From IMG/VR virus record IMGVR_UViG_3300035698_022838, positions 32,001-96,000 of that record: a stretch of 64,000 nucleotides of DNA. One strand, 5' to 3'. The notes beneath the pieces were generated by a model that did no database searches, was not told the origin of the DNA, and saw only the letters and a program-made list of their open reading frames with translations. Position 1 is the first letter of the stretch. Each line of letters opens with the position of its first letter. Below are positions 2,187-19,416 of this stretch, piece by piece. The position numbers and the translations under genes were made by a program. The DNA comes from a virus.

Positions 2187-2822
2187 TTAGGCTTTCTTAC
2201 TTGATTTTGATACACCAAGTATTTTAGTAGCTTCTTTATATACATCTCTTATTTTTTGGGATGCATCTAATTTTATTAAGCGTCTACTTTTTTTGTATTT
2301 TTCTATGATTGGTACAGTTTTTTCACGATATTCTTTAAATCTTCTTTCTATAGTTTCTTCGTTCTTATCATCTTCTCTTCCTTCTCTTTCTGCTCGTCCC
2401 ATTATTCTTTTTTTAGCAGTTTCTTCCCCAACCTCTAAATAGATACAATGGTTTAAAGAAACCCCTAACTTACCAAAGATAGAGTCAAGGAGTTTAGTTT
2501 GTTTTACTGTTCTTGGAAATCCATCTATAATTATATTTTTAGAAAAATCTATTTTTCTGAGTCTTTTTCTTAGTAATCTACCTATTGCACGATCAGAAAC
2601 TAATCCTCCACTAGAACTAGTTTTTTTTAATTCTTTATCTTCTGATGATCTTATTAGATCACCTGTAGAAATATGCACAAAACCATTGTTATCTGCAAGC
2701 TTCTCTGAAATAGTACCTTTACCAGAACCCGGAGGTCCTAACATAATTATAATTTTGCCCTGTTTATCCGGAATCTGCATTTCATTAAGAAATGTTGAAA
2801 AATCCACTGCTTTATCTACCAT
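2187..2822 (-). CDS. adk: Adenylate kinase (short-LID type) with N-terminal extension
   Basis: P-loop GPPGSGKGT, HISTGDLIR, GGLVSD, IIDGFPRT, GREDD. About 20 extra N-terminal residues (MVDKAVDFSTFLNE...). Confidence 0.93.
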   Translation of the reverse strand: MVDKAVDFSTFLNEMQIPDKQGKIIIMLGPPGSGKGTISEKLADNNGFVHISTGDLIRSSEDKELKKTSSSGGLVSDRAIGRLLRKRLRKIDFSKNIIIDGFPRTVKQTKLLDSIFGKLGVSLNHCIYLEVGEETAKKRIMGRAEREGREDDKNEETIERRFKEYREKTVPIIEKYKKSRRLIKLDASQKIRDVYKEATKILGVSKSSKKA

Positions 2823-9352: not shown

Positions 9353-9360
9353 TATATATC
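9353..9360 (-). promoter_or_regulatory. GATATATA putative late promoter
   Basis: Just after a terminator, upstream of the gene at 9330. Confidence 0.65.
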
Positions 9361-9375
9361 TGTTTTATTCTTTAC

Positions 9376-9404
9376 AAAAAAGGCAATCTAATGATTGCCT
9401 TTTT
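9376..9404. terminator. Intrinsic (bidirectional-type) terminator after the Hc1-like gene
   Basis: AAAAA-AGGCAATC-TAAT-GATTGCCT-TTTT. Confidence 0.85.
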
Positions 9405-9425: not shown

Positions 9426-9599
9426 CTAAGCGTTTTTTGCTTCTTGGATTTCTATTCTAACTTCTTGTGCAAGTCTTTTTAATTGCTGCATTGCTTGTCT
9501 TACTCTTGTACCTGCTGCGTTATTGCCTTTATCAGCAAATTTTTCAACGTCGTCTTCAGTATTTAAAATAAGATCTTTAATTTCTTCGAATGATTCCAT
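9426..9599 (-). CDS. Histone H1-like protein Hc1 (57 aa; below the ORF-track cutoff)
   Basis: MESFEEIKDLILNTEDDVEKFADKGNNAAGTRVRQAMQQLKRLAQEVRIEIQEAKNA, with the KGN.AAG.RVR signature, its own promoter and its own terminator. Confidence 0.9.
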   Translation of the reverse strand: MESFEEIKDLILNTEDDVEKFADKGNNAAGTRVRQAMQQLKRLAQEVRIEIQEAKNA

Positions 9600-9652: not shown

Positions 9653-10177
9653 TTATCTGCTTATAATGTATGTTTTCTCTTCTGAACCTTCTTGCATTGA
9701 CCATTCATTACCTAACTCGGCGACAATCACAGATTTAACCTTTTCCATGTAATTCTCTGCTTTACAATTTAAGTTCATTTCGTCAAATATTCTAACCACA
9801 CTTGGATTCTTTTCAAGATAACTCATTAAAGCTTTTGAAGCCTGATTGAATAATCTAACTAAATCATTACCTTCTATATTGAATGTTATATCATTTAACT
9901 CTGGTAGTTCGTTATTATTAACTGCTATATCCTGTATCTCTTCAGGTGCTATTTCATTCAAATTTAAAACTGCATAAGAATTCTTAGGCCCTTCAGTTGT
10001 TTCGTATTGTGAATATTTACCTATTATAAAAGAAAATCCTTTTGTTTCTCCACTTTCAAGCCCAAGGTTAAACATATAATAACAAAGGTCTCCGTCTTTC
10101 CTAAATAGAAAAGGCATGCTACCAAAGCCATCTGCTTCATTTATAAATTCTATAAAATTTCTAATCTTTCTTTCCAC
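9653..10177 (-). CDS. Hypothetical protein with capsid-targeting-like N-terminus
   Basis: MERKIRNFIEFINE (GTG start). Confidence 0.7.
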   Translation of the reverse strand: MERKIRNFIEFINEADGFGSMPFLFRKDGDLCYYMFNLGLESGETKGFSFIIGKYSQYETTEGPKNSYAVLNLNEIAPEEIQDIAVNNNELPELNDITFNIEGNDLVRLFNQASKALMSYLEKNPSVVRIFDEMNLNCKAENYMEKVKSVIVAELGNEWSMQEGSEEKTYIISR

Positions 10178-10192
10178 TATATTAATTTATTT

Positions 10193-12127
10193 TTATACCT
10201 CTGTTACGAGACTATTAAATAGATTACTAACCTCTTTAGGTACTAATTTTTTGAACGTCGAAAAATCTTCGTCCTTTAGTGCTGCTCTAACTCTAGTTGC
10301 TGATGTCAATCTTGGGGTTTTTTCTAGTGAAAAGGACTTATGTAAATTATCCTTCAAATCGGATACCTTAATGTAGTCCATCTGCTTCTTATAATCGTCG
10401 CTACGGTCATCCCCAGTACCAACTAAGCGCGGATCGTAACCATCTTTAACTAACTTATTTATTGCAGAACCCAATAGTCCTCTAGATACTATAAAATATC
10501 CTTCTATCTCATTATTATTCGATACGACAGCATCCATATAATGTTTGATTGTATTCTCATTAAATGGTGATTTACCGGATTTATTATGACCTGGATAAAC
10601 TACGATTACGAATGTTGGTAGATCATTCTTTTTCTTCATTACTCTTGCCATCTTCAAATGTCCATTATGAAATGGTTGAAATCTACCAATTATTACATTA
10701 ACTTTGACTCTTTTTTGCGTAGTCTCATTCTCAGTTAATAATATAGCTTCTTGTTGTGGTTGCGATTCAGGTTGGGTTTCCTCATTTGAGCTTTCCTCTA
10801 TGGTTTCGAGTTTACTTCTAAAATTATCATAAGATTGTAATGGATTTTCTAGGTCTTCTTCCTCACTTTCAGTTTGTATATAATCAACACTTGGTACAAA
10901 ATCCTTTTTAAAATCAGCAAATGAAATAAACGTTGATTCACTTATTACTTCTTTGGGTTTTTTAATGTACTTTTTAATGTGGTTGATTAACCCATTTAAT
11001 TGTTTTAGCATACCATCGGTAACAATTCCACTAGTTCTAGATTTGATTTTTCTAAATGAGTTTAGAATTAGCTTAAAAAGAGATTCGTATGCATCATCTT
11101 TCTTAAGATATTTTAAAACTTTTCTATCATTTATTATTTCCTTATTTAATCTAAATTCATCTCTTTTAAGATATTCGGGTTCTTCGAAATCAGTACCTTT
11201 ATATTTATCAGCATATTCATCTAAAAATTTCACAAACACGCTTGATATAAAGGAAATATACCTTTCATCGTCTGTTGATCCTTCAATTTCGAATTTATCT
11301 AAACCTCTTTCAAGTATGAAGTTCATTACATCTAATAAAGTTATACCTAAAAAATCACTAGGCTTTTTAGACTCTTTCTTAGCAGATTTATGTTTAGCTA
11401 TTTCAGTAAATATTGGATCAACCATTTTTGCTAATACTGTTTCGTCCTTATCTTGACCACCAAACTTGAATACAACACCCTCGACATCCTTATCAAGATC
11501 GTCATTTAATGCGGTTTTAGATAACTTAGGATTAAGTGTTTTAATTATAAATCTAACAAAACTTGAGGTCTTAAACTTCTCGATTAGCTCTTTATTTGGG
11601 GTATTTAAAAAATCCATCAATTCAGATTTCTGATCCTCATCCAATTTACCTTGGAAAATTATAGGAGGTCTTTCAACATCCAGTAAATCAGCCCAATCAT
11701 TTAACTCATTTTTATCATGTATTATTTTAGTGATCTTCTTAGAATTATCTAAGCGGTGTATAAATGAAAGGATAAGATTATTTTTAGGTAATCTGTCGTA
11801 TGTTATCTCAACTGGTTTAGTTGAGGCAAAATATTCAAAACCAAACCTAACCCCTCTTGGGATTTGCTCTATTATATTCGGTTGTAAAGATTCTATATAC
11901 TGTATTGGTTTCTCATAATATTTCATGAGTGTTCTATCAACCAATGTAATTGGATGTCTTTGATCTCTTCGGTAAAACTCAAATTTACCGGTGCTTCTAT
12001 TCCTTTCGAACGAAAACGCTGAACCATCCATTTTTTCATTAATAGTCACAAACTTATTGAAAAGTTGTTCTATAAAATCTGATCCCTTCTTATTATAAAT
12101 ATCATATAAATGATTTATTCCTGCCAT
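10193..12127 (-). CDS. Fusion: ATP-dependent RNA-ligase-like domain + HIGH-family (cytidylyl/adenylyl) nucleotidyltransferase
   Basis: Ligase motifs I EKMDGS, III GFEYF, IV EGVVFK, V LAKMVD. C-terminal GRFQPFHNGH, SPF, GDDR..DY, TSATRVR. Confidence 0.8.
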   Translation of the reverse strand: MAGINHLYDIYNKKGSDFIEQLFNKFVTINEKMDGSAFSFERNRSTGKFEFYRRDQRHPITLVDRTLMKYYEKPIQYIESLQPNIIEQIPRGVRFGFEYFASTKPVEITYDRLPKNNLILSFIHRLDNSKKITKIIHDKNELNDWADLLDVERPPIIFQGKLDEDQKSELMDFLNTPNKELIEKFKTSSFVRFIIKTLNPKLSKTALNDDLDKDVEGVVFKFGGQDKDETVLAKMVDPIFTEIAKHKSAKKESKKPSDFLGITLLDVMNFILERGLDKFEIEGSTDDERYISFISSVFVKFLDEYADKYKGTDFEEPEYLKRDEFRLNKEIINDRKVLKYLKKDDAYESLFKLILNSFRKIKSRTSGIVTDGMLKQLNGLINHIKKYIKKPKEVISESTFISFADFKKDFVPSVDYIQTESEEEDLENPLQSYDNFRSKLETIEESSNEETQPESQPQQEAILLTENETTQKRVKVNVIIGRFQPFHNGHLKMARVMKKKNDLPTFVIVVYPGHNKSGKSPFNENTIKHYMDAVVSNNNEIEGYFIVSRGLLGSAINKLVKDGYDPRLVGTGDDRSDDYKKQMDYIKVSDLKDNLHKSFSLEKTPRLTSATRVRAALKDEDFSTFKKLVPKEVSNLFNSLVTEV

Positions 12128-12131
12128 CTTC

Positions 12132-12539
12132 TTAGTTAAGTAAAAATTTATTCTGCAAACTAGCCATTAATAACGGATTACTATCTACTACTATATGTGC
12201 TATACCTTCTAGTATATTTTTTAAAAGAATTTTCGATTTATCATGCAAATCTTCTTCGCCTAATTCAATAACTCTTTCTACTAATTCCTCCATATTTGGT
12301 GCATCGTTCTCTTGTGTAATTAACTCGAATACTGAATTTTCGATAGTATAGACTATTGACCTTTCTACTATTATATCCCAATTACCATCAGAATTCTCTA
12401 TAATGTCACCATGAAACCCTAATACTGTAACAAAATGTATATTTTTTTCCGCTCTTCTAACAATACTTGGAGAATCATTCTCTAAGAATATCTCTAAAGC
12501 TCCATATATTAGGTCGTTATGTTTTTGTGTAAATGCCAT
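12132..12539 (-). CDS. Hypothetical protein
   Basis: 135-aa ORF between the two nucleotidyltransferase genes; gaps of 1-4 nt. Confidence 0.65.
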   Translation of the reverse strand: MAFTQKHNDLIYGALEIFLENDSPSIVRRAEKNIHFVTVLGFHGDIIENSDGNWDIIVERSIVYTIENSVFELITQENDAPNMEELVERVIELGEEDLHDKSKILLKNILEGIAHIVVDSNPLLMASLQNKFLLN

Positions 12540-12540
12540 A

Positions 12541-13452
12541 TTATTTTATTTCATTAGGAATTTCATAATCCCCATTTGTTAAATATCTAATTAAATCTTT
12601 TTTTATTTCTTCAATTTTGTCTTTGTGTTTAAAATCATCTTTAATAACTAATTTCCATGCGCTTTCGAACGTTTTAACATCCTCTGGCTTAACCCCATTA
12701 CCGAATAATAAATTTACAAGATCTCTTGGATCATTTGTTATAAGTGTTCCCTTCTTAGAAATTATCTTTGGTTTAGCTAATCTTTTTTTAATCCCCTTGT
12801 ATGTTTTCTTATTTCTATATACTCCATCACTTAATCTTAATACATAAGCATTATAATCTTCAATTTCACCATTTTCATCTTTTGATATTATAGCTTTCAT
12901 AGATGATAATATTGCTTGAAATAACCAATTTCTATGTGCGGATTTATACTTACTTTCACTAATTTTATAATCTGGTGAATAAAATATAAATTTTGCCCAG
13001 TCCATATCACTAATCGGAATCAAATCTAATTGAACCAGCCCATTCTTCTCTTCGCCTTCTATTGGCCAACCTACCGACAATACATTAATACCCTTCATTA
13101 ATCGTATCTCTGTATCAAATCCTAATTTCTTTGGCAATTCGTTGGTTAATATTTTTTCCAGAAAATCTAATACCTCGCTCTTTTTAATCTTGAATTTATT
13201 TGCAATAAATGCTTTATTTATACCAAGATCTATATCGCCAGACGTTTCGTTTGGATCTTTTTTCTTACCAACACTTCCTATAATAATGTATGCACTATCT
13301 AACTTACCATTCCCAATAATTGGAAATAATGTATCCTCTATTGACTTTATAGTTTGCGGAACCTCACCTTCCTTTATTCTTCTGGATTTAGTAATTGCAT
13401 TACCACCCTCAAACAAAGATGTAAACTGATTATATTTAAGCAAATTACTCAC
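12541..13452 (-). CDS. Pol-beta-superfamily nucleotidyltransferase with capsid-targeting-like N-terminus
   Basis: IGSVGKK.....SGDIDL (GS...DxD) and third Asp in VQLDL; N-terminus MSNLLKYNQFTSLFE-GGNA. Confidence 0.75.
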   Translation of the reverse strand: MSNLLKYNQFTSLFEGGNAITKSRRIKEGEVPQTIKSIEDTLFPIIGNGKLDSAYIIIGSVGKKKDPNETSGDIDLGINKAFIANKFKIKKSEVLDFLEKILTNELPKKLGFDTEIRLMKGINVLSVGWPIEGEEKNGLVQLDLIPISDMDWAKFIFYSPDYKISESKYKSAHRNWLFQAILSSMKAIISKDENGEIEDYNAYVLRLSDGVYRNKKTYKGIKKRLAKPKIISKKGTLITNDPRDLVNLLFGNGVKPEDVKTFESAWKLVIKDDFKHKDKIEEIKKDLIRYLTNGDYEIPNEIK

Positions 13453-13940
13453 TATTTAAAATTGAAATATTTTGAAGCATTATTAACATATTCAGCATAA
13501 ATACTTTGTTCTTTACCTTCAGGATTCTCAGGATCAAACTTACCACCGAAAGATTTTCTACCTTTTAATATTGCATCTCTATAAAACTTCTCATAATCAG
13601 CTTCTTTGTTATTACCCTTTCTTCTTATATCATCACCCCATTTAGAAAGTATCTCATCTTGACTCCCACGTAGAGCATCTGCTGACATGCTTGATGTTCT
13701 CCCATTATTAAATAAATCACTTATCCCGCTTGTGAGTCCTGCTAAACTATTAATAGCACCCTTAAGTAATCTCTTTAATGCACCAGCTTCATCATATGTC
13801 GTTTGATATATCTTTTCTTGTGGGGTTTCTGCAGAAATCCTACTTCTAATCTCCTTAATCTTTCTTTCGGCATCACTATAATTAGTATAATAGCGCTTTG
13901 ATTCATTTAAGAAATCATCAAAAGTTTTTAAATTGTCCAT
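13452..13940 (-). CDS. Hypothetical head-internal-type protein
   Basis: MDNLKTFDDFLNE; GATATATA at 13961-13968. Confidence 0.75.
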   Translation of the reverse strand: MDNLKTFDDFLNESKRYYTNYSDAERKIKEIRSRISAETPQEKIYQTTYDEAGALKRLLKGAINSLAGLTSGISDLFNNGRTSSMSADALRGSQDEILSKWGDDIRRKGNNKEADYEKFYRDAILKGRKSFGGKFDPENPEGKEQSIYAEYVNNASKYFNFK

Positions 13941-13960: not shown

Positions 13961-13968
13961 TATATATC
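13961..13968 (-). promoter_or_regulatory. GATATATA putative late promoter
   Basis: Heads the 13940-9653 operon. Confidence 0.65.
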
Positions 13969-13975
13969 TCGTAAA

Positions 13976-15514
13976 TTAAAGTTTTACTTTATAAATCTTG
14001 TAGATAAACTTCTCATTCTCGTATATTTGAATACGTGCGCTACTATGCTTCATAAGATAATTTACATATTTTGAAGTACTGAAATCATCTACGAAGTCAA
14101 TGACTATTACTTTATCCTTTCCTTCCATTAACCTCATACCTCTACCTAAACTCTGTTTTATTAAAACTTCGCTTTTATAGGATTCTACTAGAAAAATGTT
14201 ATGTAGATTATCTATAGAAATTCCAGTTGAGAATGTACCGTATGTAGCGATCAACACCTTATTCTCACCTACCGCCATTCTTGACTTATACTCTTCTCTC
14301 CTATTTTCATCAATATCGCCATCTACATAGAAAACCTCTTTTTCACCGTTTATTTCACGAAGTTCATTCCAAATTTTCTTACCATATTCATCCTTTACTG
14401 ATTGGAAAAGAACTAACGAATTCTTGGTTGTTCTATTTATAAAGTCAACTATATAATCAAACCTTTTTTTACTTTCGATAACAAGTCTTCTCTCTATATT
14501 ATAGATTTCAGTACTATCGGTTTTCTCTTTATCTTTTTTATTCCTGTTTTTTAGCTCAGCTAACTTCAGTTTTAATTCTTCATCTAACCAATCTAATACA
14601 ACTACTTTAATCTCAACAGGTGTTGCATATTTGTTTTGAAATAAAAATTCGGGTGGGATTTCAACTAATAATGGACCTAGGTACTGCTGAATAGTTAAAT
14701 GATCTGCTGAATCCCTCTTTGTTAGTGTTCCAGACATACCAAATCTCCATTTACTGTTCGTGCACTTAGATAAGATCTTCTTGATTGACATCGTGTCAGT
14801 ATGGTGTGCCTCATCAACGAAAACAGCATCTACATCATCGAAAAATTCTTCGTCTCTTTTCACTAAGGATTGAAATGTACCAATAATAACATTACATCCT
14901 TCTCTTAATTTACTTCCGCCGCCAATTTGCTGAACCTTACAATCCTCAAGTCTACCAATTCCATATTCTATAAAATCATCATTACCTTGAAATACTAGGT
15001 TTGTCTTTGGTGCTACCATTAGGAATTTTCTAATGTAGCCTTGGCTTTTAAGGAACGCAAGTATCATAAAAGCTATGAGCGTTTTACCAGAAGATGTAGC
15101 TATTTCTGAAATTGAATATCTAAATTTTATAATTCTCCATGCTGCTTCTATCTGATAATCTCTTGGTTTCTTCTCGTTATTCTTAAAAAATTCATTAGCC
15201 CATCCAGTAAATGCTACTAACGTTAGGTCAGTTAAAAATATTTCAGTAAGACCATTTACTTCAATCTGTATATCATATTTTTTACCAACATTCATAACCT
15301 CATTCCATAGTCCTATTGGAACTTTCCAGAATGAACTTTTCTTTTCTATAAAGCAAATGTTACCATCCCAGAGCTTTTTCTTAACTAATGGATGGAAAAA
15401 CCACTTATCTATTTTTTTGGTCAGAGATATTTCAAGTTGTCTCTTCTCGATCTCATCATTGGCTTCGATCAAGATCAACCACTTTTTATCTTCTGAAACA
15501 TTAAACTTTAACAT
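13976..15514 (-). CDS. uvsW: UvsW-like SF2 DNA helicase
   Basis: WDG.I, PRDYQ, ATSSGKT, DEAH, GMSGT, FSTGISI.NLH, QSLGRGMR. Confidence 0.93.
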   Translation of the reverse strand: MLKFNVSEDKKWLILIEANDEIEKRQLEISLTKKIDKWFFHPLVKKKLWDGNICFIEKKSSFWKVPIGLWNEVMNVGKKYDIQIEVNGLTEIFLTDLTLVAFTGWANEFFKNNEKKPRDYQIEAAWRIIKFRYSISEIATSSGKTLIAFMILAFLKSQGYIRKFLMVAPKTNLVFQGNDDFIEYGIGRLEDCKVQQIGGGSKLREGCNVIIGTFQSLVKRDEEFFDDVDAVFVDEAHHTDTMSIKKILSKCTNSKWRFGMSGTLTKRDSADHLTIQQYLGPLLVEIPPEFLFQNKYATPVEIKVVVLDWLDEELKLKLAELKNRNKKDKEKTDSTEIYNIERRLVIESKKRFDYIVDFINRTTKNSLVLFQSVKDEYGKKIWNELREINGEKEVFYVDGDIDENRREEYKSRMAVGENKVLIATYGTFSTGISIDNLHNIFLVESYKSEVLIKQSLGRGMRLMEGKDKVIVIDFVDDFSTSKYVNYLMKHSSARIQIYENEKFIYKIYKVKL

Positions 15515-19170: not shown

Positions 19171-19416
19171 TTAGATAGCAGGTTTTACCGCTTCTCCTTT
19201 TTTACCAGTGTAGTTGTATTCATTTGTTAGTTTATCATAACATTTTTTCATAGATTCTTCCGTTAAACAATCGACAATGTCATTTAAAACTCTTTGGTCG
19301 TTACCTGAAGCAGCAACTAAAAGATCTTTCATGTGTTGTTTTAGATCTGCTTTACCTGCCATAGGTTGGCCATATTTCATTTCGTTAATCTTTTCTAGGT
19401 CTGAATATGTTTTCAT
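19171..19416 (-). CDS. Small probable internal head protein
   Basis: MKTYSDLEKINE resembles the T4 capsid-targeting sequence MKTYQEFIAE; own GATATATA motif and terminator. Confidence 0.7.
   Translation of the reverse strand: MKTYSDLEKINEMKYGQPMAGKADLKQHMKDLLVAASGNDQRVLNDIVDCLTEESMKKCYDKLTNEYNYTGKKGEAVKPAI

Follow-up and report, generated by a model that had tools for sequence, protein, structure and literature searches.

A late-type transcription unit of an uncultured jumbo phage encoding a Pol-beta-fold nucleotidyltransferase and a ligase-HIGH fusion protein

The window analyzed here is a stretch of 64,000 nucleotides (bases 32001-96000) of the 162,880-bp viral record IMGVR_UViG_3300035698_022838 (∼31% GC), whose completeness is estimated by CheckV at 59%. 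The source is an uncultured T4-related phage, and its complete relatives that share the locus described below measure 349-435 kb (direct terminal repeats are present in two of them), so that it is a jumbo phage. On the minus strand of the window, six co-directional genes lie between a GATATATA box (13961-13968) and a hairpin terminator (9377-9404). This single late-type transcription unit encodes three distinct nucleotidyl-transfer folds, as a preliminary description of the DNA had proposed: one in the nucleotidyltransferase (NTase) NT303 and two in a 644-residue protein, hereafter the fusion, in which a ligase-like module is joined to a HIGH-motif domain. The unit contains the following features, given in the direction of transcription.

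13961..13968, minus strand: GATATATA promoter-like box of the late type, 28 nt before the g162 ATG
13452..13940, minus strand: g162, a poorly conserved basic protein of 162 residues with a leader (MDNLKTFDDFLNE, followed by S)
12541..13452, minus strand: NT303, a Pol-beta-fold NTase of 303 residues; leader residues 1-15 end in LFE, followed by GG
12132..12539, minus strand: g135, a small acidic protein without a leader, found in part of the clade only
10193..12127, minus strand: fusion of 644 residues (ligase-like and HIGH)
11396..12127, minus strand: fusion residues 1-244, Rnl2-like covalent nucleotidyltransferase domain (K32, E98, E216 and K234)
10952..11395, minus strand: fusion residues 245-392, helical domain after the ligase NTase domain, as in full-length T4 Rnl2
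10712..10951, minus strand: fusion residues 393-472, disordered acidic linker with an isoelectric point (pI) of 4.05
10196..10711, minus strand: fusion residues 473-644, HIGH-motif adenylyl/cytidylyltransferase domain
9653..10177, minus strand: g174, a conserved acidic protein with a leader (MERKIRNFIEFINE, followed by ADGFG)
9426..9599, minus strand: Hc1-like protein of 57 residues (PF07432, E 6.6e-24), last gene before the terminator
9377..9404, minus strand: terminator-like palindromic GC-stem hairpin with a T-run; the next GATATATA box follows right after, at 9353-9360

The five open reading frames g162, NT303, g135, fusion and g174 are spaced by -1 to 15 nt, and their coordinates, strand and position behind the promoter-like box agree with the preliminary description. 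The GATATATA octamer occurs in 41 copies in the genome, 31 of which lie no more than 60 nt upstream of a same-strand start, mostly at 24-36 nt, and it is thus not a chance match. GATATATA also stands before the gene for the head maturation protease and before a baseplate operon. Judged from position alone, a late-promoter role of GATATATA appears well supported. The region shows no excess of sigma-70-like promoters (20 found versus 27 expected). The operon had been proposed to consist of five genes. Those five are confirmed, but the only terminator-like hairpin downstream of the operon is located past the Hc1-like gene, so that this gene (9599..9426), which had been omitted, probably belongs to the unit and brings it to six genes.

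Several smaller observations concern the ends of the unit. The terminator hairpin and the GATATATA box that follows it form a cassette (tagattgccttttttgtaaagaataaaacaGATATATAcattaact) that is nearly identical at two genomic sites (window 9353-9404 and C1:20217-20260). The Hc1-like protein, which matches the N-terminal domain of the histone H1-like protein Hc1, is acidic (pI 4.8) and is conserved behind g174 in nearly all relatives. Scans of Pfam, PHROG and NCBIfam gave no family match for g162, which is a candidate head-internal protein. Assignment of g174 as an archease was rejected because its Pfam match (E 0.012) was supported neither by the Atlas nor by a PDB profile search, which gave no link of g174 to solved structures.

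NT303 carries the GS…DxD…D motif of a Pol-beta-type NTase. Its catalytic residues G59, S60, D73, D75 and D143 are invariant in 13/13 orthologs and 121/121 database homologs, which bears out the earlier assignment to this class, and the family X palm signature (hG[GS]x9-13DhD and a third Asp) is present. The AlphaFold model of NT303 has a predicted local distance difference test (pLDDT) score of 84 and is disordered up to residue 16. A Foldseek search with the model placed family X first, with pol beta and pol lambda at E ∼4e-4, and VIA aligned it with Leishmania pol beta, African swine fever virus (ASFV) Pol X, TdT and pol lambda over 163-183 residues (Z scores of 8.7-9.1); for ASFV Pol X and the palm and thumb of pol beta, Z scores were 8.5-9.1 and root-mean-square deviations 3.8-5.5 Å. 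Only ∼100 residues of TUTases, poly(A) polymerases, CD-NTases and CCA enzymes were aligned to the model, and the proposal that NT303 is an RNA- or tRNA-tailing enzyme is weakened by its longer match to a family X palm and thumb.

NT303 resembles family X DNA polymerases, and above all the minimal ASFV Pol X, in its GS…SGDxD…D palm and, more tentatively, in a following domain that aligns to the thumb (163 of the 176 ASFV Pol X residues, Z 9.0). NT303 differs from family X in that it lacks a sequence-level match and the 8-kDa and fingers domains and has an additional C-terminal helical region as well as the N-terminal leader. No match to NT303 was found in the Pfam (including DNA_pol_B_palm and DNA_pol_B_thumb), NCBIfam, PHROG or PDB-profile libraries. 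With moderate confidence, the model suggests that NT303 is a minimal PolX-like enzyme. At least 993 homologs exist, all unnamed. Of the viral models, that of a protein from the jumbo Agrobacterium phage Atu_ph07, itself uncharacterised, scored best (E 5e-16); PolX entries of giant viruses ranked next. Lak megaphages carry homologs at 28% identity.

The fusion is a genuine union of an RNA-ligase-like and a HIGH domain; all of the motifs quoted in the preliminary description are found in it, and structure comparisons support both domains. The fusion model (pLDDT 79) comprises an NTase domain, a helical domain, a disordered linker and a Rossmann-like domain. The Pfam match to RNA_ligase (PF09414; residues 27-234, E 5.7e-6) is borderline, with 27.0 bits against a cut-off of 27 and 29.9 bits in the genome search. 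The ligase motifs are EKMDG (residues 31-35), FGFEYF (motif III), EGVVFK (EGVV, residues 216-219) and AKMVD (AKMV, residues 233-236). The N-terminal part matches full-length T4 Rnl2 (2hvr) in Foldseek (E 1.8e-8) and in VIA (Z 10.9 over 195 residues), and further structural matches are REL1, Trl1-LIG and NgrRnl. A PDB sequence-profile search gave no link of the ligase module to solved structures.

T4 RNA ligase 2 (gp24.1, PF09414), T. brucei REL1 and Trl1 LIG share with the fusion an N-terminal nucleotidyltransferase fold followed by a helical domain, and T4 Rnl2 and PF09414 also share the motif I Lys, the motif III Glu, the motif IV EGxV and a motif V Lys. Unlike Rnl2, the fusion has one Lys in motif V (AKMVD) instead of KxK, is joined to a HIGH transferase through an acidic linker and ends its ligase module with a family-specific E-S-x-x-P-S-F-x-D-F motif. 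Alignment of the module by hhalign with a second, canonical RNA ligase of the genome matched motif I alone (probability 3.7%), and the single-Lys motif V can therefore not be placed residue by residue. The profile search of the genome identified that second RNA ligase (PF09414) together with a DNA ligase (PF01068), and a role of the fusion as the replicative DNA ligase was rejected because the genome owns both.

The HIGH domain contains GRFQPFHNGH (residues 481-490) and the SxTxxR-like TSATRVR (residues 608-614), both of which vary across the family, and M. jannaschii NMNAT has exactly the same GRFQPFHxGH signature. The C-terminal part of the fusion matches NadD, NMNAT and PPAT in VIA (Z 13.3-14.6, with NadD at 14.6) and TmcAL at Z 12.3. 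It is recognized by Pfam CTP_transf_like (PF01467; E 2e-6, 28.5 bits against a cut-off of 21) and by the generic TIGR00125 (30.1 bits against 27.7). The Rossmann-like fold, the signature and the SxTxxR-like motif are shared with archaeal NMNAT (NadM), NadD and PPAT, as the earlier assignment of an NMNAT/cytidylyltransferase-like domain had implied. In contrast to NMNAT and NadD, the domain is joined to a ligase and falls below all curated equivalog cut-offs (16-27 bits against 112-449), including those of NF002243 (26.8 bits against 127) and TIGR01527 (20.2 bits against 181.2). Because only the generic model was passed, the domain is not filed as NMNAT.

The linker between the two modules is acidic, as described previously, and disordered, and it contains the peptides VISE, FISFADF, LQSYDNF and LLTE. 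Two short motifs, (V/I)xES..SFxDFKK and FxSYxxF, are conserved, and residues E397, S398, F403, F406 and F436 are invariant or nearly so. The peptides earlier described as tag-like are thus conserved, with FxxF motifs. The first motif, E-S-x-x-(P)-(S/T)-F-x-(D/E)-(F/Y), is however found family-wide and forms the C-terminal end of ligase-only proteins, and it is thus intrinsic to the ligase module rather than a simply inserted capsid tag. It could serve as a binding peptide for a scaffold, a clamp or another partner, and the (V/I)-x-E that precedes it is a conceivable cleavage site of the head protease.

At least 932 close homologs belong to the fusion family, which falls into 1412 clusters at 50% identity; some members are ligase-only forms of ∼400 residues, and others have 1000-1288 residues. 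Eight homologs of 990-1288 residues (P0122, P0123, P0128, P0130, P0145, P0147, P0149 and P0165) carry an extra 350-650 C-terminal residues in which no Pfam domain is found. A literature search found no published description of an Rnl2-HIGH fusion. Residues were counted in 150 family representatives, of which 141 were scored for motif I, 118 for the HIGH motif and 111 as full-length proteins. The motif I Lys is retained in 111/141 representatives and missing from the other 30, about one-fifth, which also sets the family apart from Rnl2, and the final His of the HIGH motif is retained in 93/118. The preliminary reading presupposed conserved catalytic residues, which holds for NT303 throughout (121/121) and for the fusion only in part. 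Both sites are lost in only two of the 111 full-length fusions. At least one site is intact in the remaining 109 (Fisher p = 0.035, relatedness ignored), which points to selection on catalysis; the pattern suggests that at least one adenylyl-transfer site of the fusion is under selection. In one relative (L055), the ligase motifs are intact but FDNLD replaces HNGH.

Three of the proteins encoded by the unit begin with a putative capsid leader. The N-termini of g162, NT303 and g174 follow the pattern M-x(2-5)-(I/L)-x-x-(F/Y)-x-x-F...(L/I/V)-x-E. The T4 capsid-targeting sequence (CTS) is MKTYQEFIAE and is removed by cleavage in the head (PMC8442874, PMC3012670, PMC9026906). The g162 protein starts with MDNLKTFDDFLNE, and its leader KTFDDFLNE matches T4 KTYQEFIAE at each position. 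The resemblance of the g162 and g174 leaders to the T4 CTS is consistent with the capsid tags reported previously for two genes of the operon; the count is three, since NT303 is tagged as well (MSNLLKYNQFTSLFE, followed by GG). Orthologs differ in the length of the leader, whereas conservation sets in just behind the Glu, with GGAAI in NT303 and DGFG in g174. The (L/I/V/M)-x-E site followed by GG is kept in 121/121 NT303 homologs. Across the N-termini examined, the leader pattern is present in 14/187, compared with 2.3% of internal windows, and 8 of those 14 genes lie directly behind GATATATA.

A gp21-type head maturation protease is encoded in the genome behind GATATATA (phrog_207, E 7e-37; PF03420, 26.6 bits against a cut-off of 27). 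Its domain occupies the first ∼230 residues of a 677-residue open reading frame (C1:115614-117647, L086), the rest of which may include a fused scaffold. An adenylate kinase (window 2187-2822, minus strand; NCBIfam E 1.4e-47), whose core begins at residue ∼25 after the leader MVDKAVDFSTFLNE and whose gene has GATATATA 51 nt upstream, is a candidate head-packaged kinase. Elsewhere in the window (19171-19416, minus strand), an 81-residue protein behind GATATATA starts with MKTYSDLEKINE, the first four residues of which are those of the T4 internal-protein leader. The T4 internal proteins and Alt, which are packaged in the head and injected, resemble these proteins in their short N-terminal K-T-(F/Y)-x-(D/E)-F-(L/I)-x-E leader, their gp21-type protease and their late expression. 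By this analogy, we infer, reasonably in our view, that the leader-bearing proteins are packaged and their leaders cleaved. In contrast to the T4 proteins, the candidate cargo consists of enzymes (PolX-like NTase and adenylate kinase), and the leader is variable in length.

Conservation of the locus was compared in 80 loci of the window's clade and in another 80 loci of the wider fusion family, with distant neighborhoods drawn from IMG/VR loci. Two further features enter the comparison.

15514..13976, minus strand (start 15514): UvsW/SNF2-type helicase, just upstream of the operon
L198:5561-6829 and 73 other loci among L176-L255, and L081:5704-6966: examples of the A8 family, unannotated ligase-like proteins of ∼425 residues

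Beyond the helicase lie a primase, a gp32-type single-stranded DNA-binding protein (SSB), a RuvC-like resolvase and a tail tube gene; the operon is thus flanked by genes of replication and morphogenesis that resemble those of T4. Elsewhere, the genome encodes a baseplate wedge protein and the gp21-type protease. In nearly all of the 80 clade loci, the order helicase, g162, NT303, (g135), fusion, g174 and Hc1 is kept. NT303 and g162 are missing from divergent subclades of the clade, and all NT303 loci found in IMG/VR fall in the clade. In three of the loci (L059:5722-6552, L063:5670-6551 and L065:5752-6552), the NTase slot holds an unrelated protein of 266-293 residues with an extremely acidic, Glu/Asp-rich C-terminal tail; these belong to the subclade in which the ligase catalytic residues are lost.

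In the wider family, the helicase lies upstream of the fusion, a few genes apart, in 68/80 loci, and an A8 protein is encoded directly upstream of the fusion in 74/80, mostly <200 nt away. A8 has a T4-CTS-like leader, in which (L/I/V)-x-E is followed by GGAAGHMxHPFDD, and the invariant ligase-type motifs TEKxDGQ, ARNK and PTEGxVFKYKGKxYKLTG, and it found no Pfam, PHROG or PDB sequence match. The protein is absent from the three complete genomes of the window's clade, in a search whose positive control worked. The huge phage LR756500 has the arrangement of the wider family, with a tagged A8-type ligase-like protein by the fusion. The conserved theme is therefore a leader-tagged nucleotidyltransferase beside an untagged ligase-HIGH fusion, of which the set of three folds is a clade-level variant. 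The fusion belongs to the core genes of giant phages across a very large group.

Taken together, these features are read here as a late unit that combines leader-tagged, head-loaded proteins with an untagged bifunctional ligase-HIGH enzyme for nucleic-acid end processing, an interpretation to which we give an even chance. The g162 protein, the PolX-like NT303 and g174 would probably enter the prohead through their T4-type leaders, a gp21-type protease would trim the leaders after (L/I/V)-x-E, and the proteins would then be released with the DNA. The fusion would be an Rnl2-type nick-sealing ligase and a HIGH adenylyltransferase connected by a flexible acidic linker. The most likely chemistry would be nucleotide addition by the PolX-like enzyme and 5'-adenylylation and sealing by the fusion, both on the ends of a nucleic acid that may be DNA or RNA.

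Several results weigh against this interpretation. The resemblance of NT303 to PolX is modest (Z ∼9, TM scores of 0.3-0.4), and sequence profiles are blind to it. Packaging rests on the analogy with T4, and the fusion has no N-terminal leader. In a subclade of the window's own group (L059, L061, L063, L065 and L071), ligase motifs I, III and IV are lost and read ENLDG, FGMA/VYF and DSLVF, which argues for a second, non-catalytic role of the fusion. Among the 80 loci of the wider family, NT303 is present in 2, g174 in 0 and g135 in 0, and all three are absent from LR756500. The kit is thus specific to the window's clade, and co-occurrence does not establish that the NTase and the fusion are functionally linked.

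The preliminary description favored a pre-made, injected counter-defence kit, in which tRNAs severed by anticodon nucleases are mended by the ligase and a tailing NTase, and NAD+ lost through Thoeris/SIR2-type depletion is restored by the NMNAT-like domain. The Rnl2-like fold, the NMNAT-like GRFQPFHNGH and SxTxxR motifs, and the late promoter and leaders of the neighboring genes are compatible with such a kit, which we nevertheless consider unlikely. The RNA-repair half is opposed by the PolX-like, rather than CCA-adding or TUTase-like, character of the NTase, by the separate canonical RNA ligase of the genome, by zero tRNA genes in the window and by the failure to recognize a T4-type Pnkp; the fusion itself is moreover untagged. 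As to NAD+, two of five relatives have Nampt, and the complete genome G001 contains no PF01467 match besides the fusion, which is compatible with NAD salvage there. Nampt is absent from the complete relative G002, and the NMNAT equivalog models are missed by ∼100 bits or more. NARP2-type NAD salvage as the main role is weakened, as no Nampt is found in the phage's own record or in G002.

A chiefly morphogenetic or structural role of the fusion, as a late protein in which a ligase fold persists, is improbable; in that case its neighbors would be unrelated head-internal proteins that share the late operon. T4 gp63, which is RNA ligase 1 and also the tail-fiber attachment factor, is a precedent. 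The repeated loss of catalytic residues in a protein that persists at 43-49% identity, its many invariant non-catalytic residues (for example PITxVDRxLMKYYEKPI and NSFRK), the late promoter and the change of partners between clades would fit such a role. The near-universal retention of at least one adenylyl-transfer site among full-length representatives does not, and the window fusion retains all motifs. Likewise improbable is a linkage by inherited order only, in which three enzymes of separate pathways are clustered within a conserved replication block (helicase, primase and SSB): the entire neighborhood is syntenic, unrelated genes included, and Lak megaphages and Atu_ph07, which have NT303 homologs, are both missing from the fusion matches in the phage collection, but the slot upstream of the fusion holds a leader-tagged nucleotidyltransferase both in the window's clade (NT303) and in the wider family (A8), which hints at functional pairing.

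One further mechanism is conceivable, although very improbable. NMNAT chemistry converts ATP and a 5'-phosphorylated nucleotide to A(5')pp(5')N, the same AppN type as the ligase intermediate. The HIGH domain might adenylylate a polynucleotide 5'-phosphate directly instead of making NAD, and the Rnl2-like module might seal without its own lysine. The result would be a two-domain, lysine-independent ligation that acts, alongside a head-delivered PolX-like or ligase-like enzyme, on the ends of the incoming genome. If true, this would explain the decay of either active site and almost never of both.

With the Rnl2-HIGH fusion, the coupling of two adenylyl-transfer chemistries within a single polypeptide can be put to the test in a defined case. 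If the leaders do load heads, very abundant uncultured giant phages would deliver enzymes, such as a PolX-like transferase and an adenylate kinase, with their DNA and not only small inhibitor proteins, and the range of proteins that phages are known to inject would become broader.

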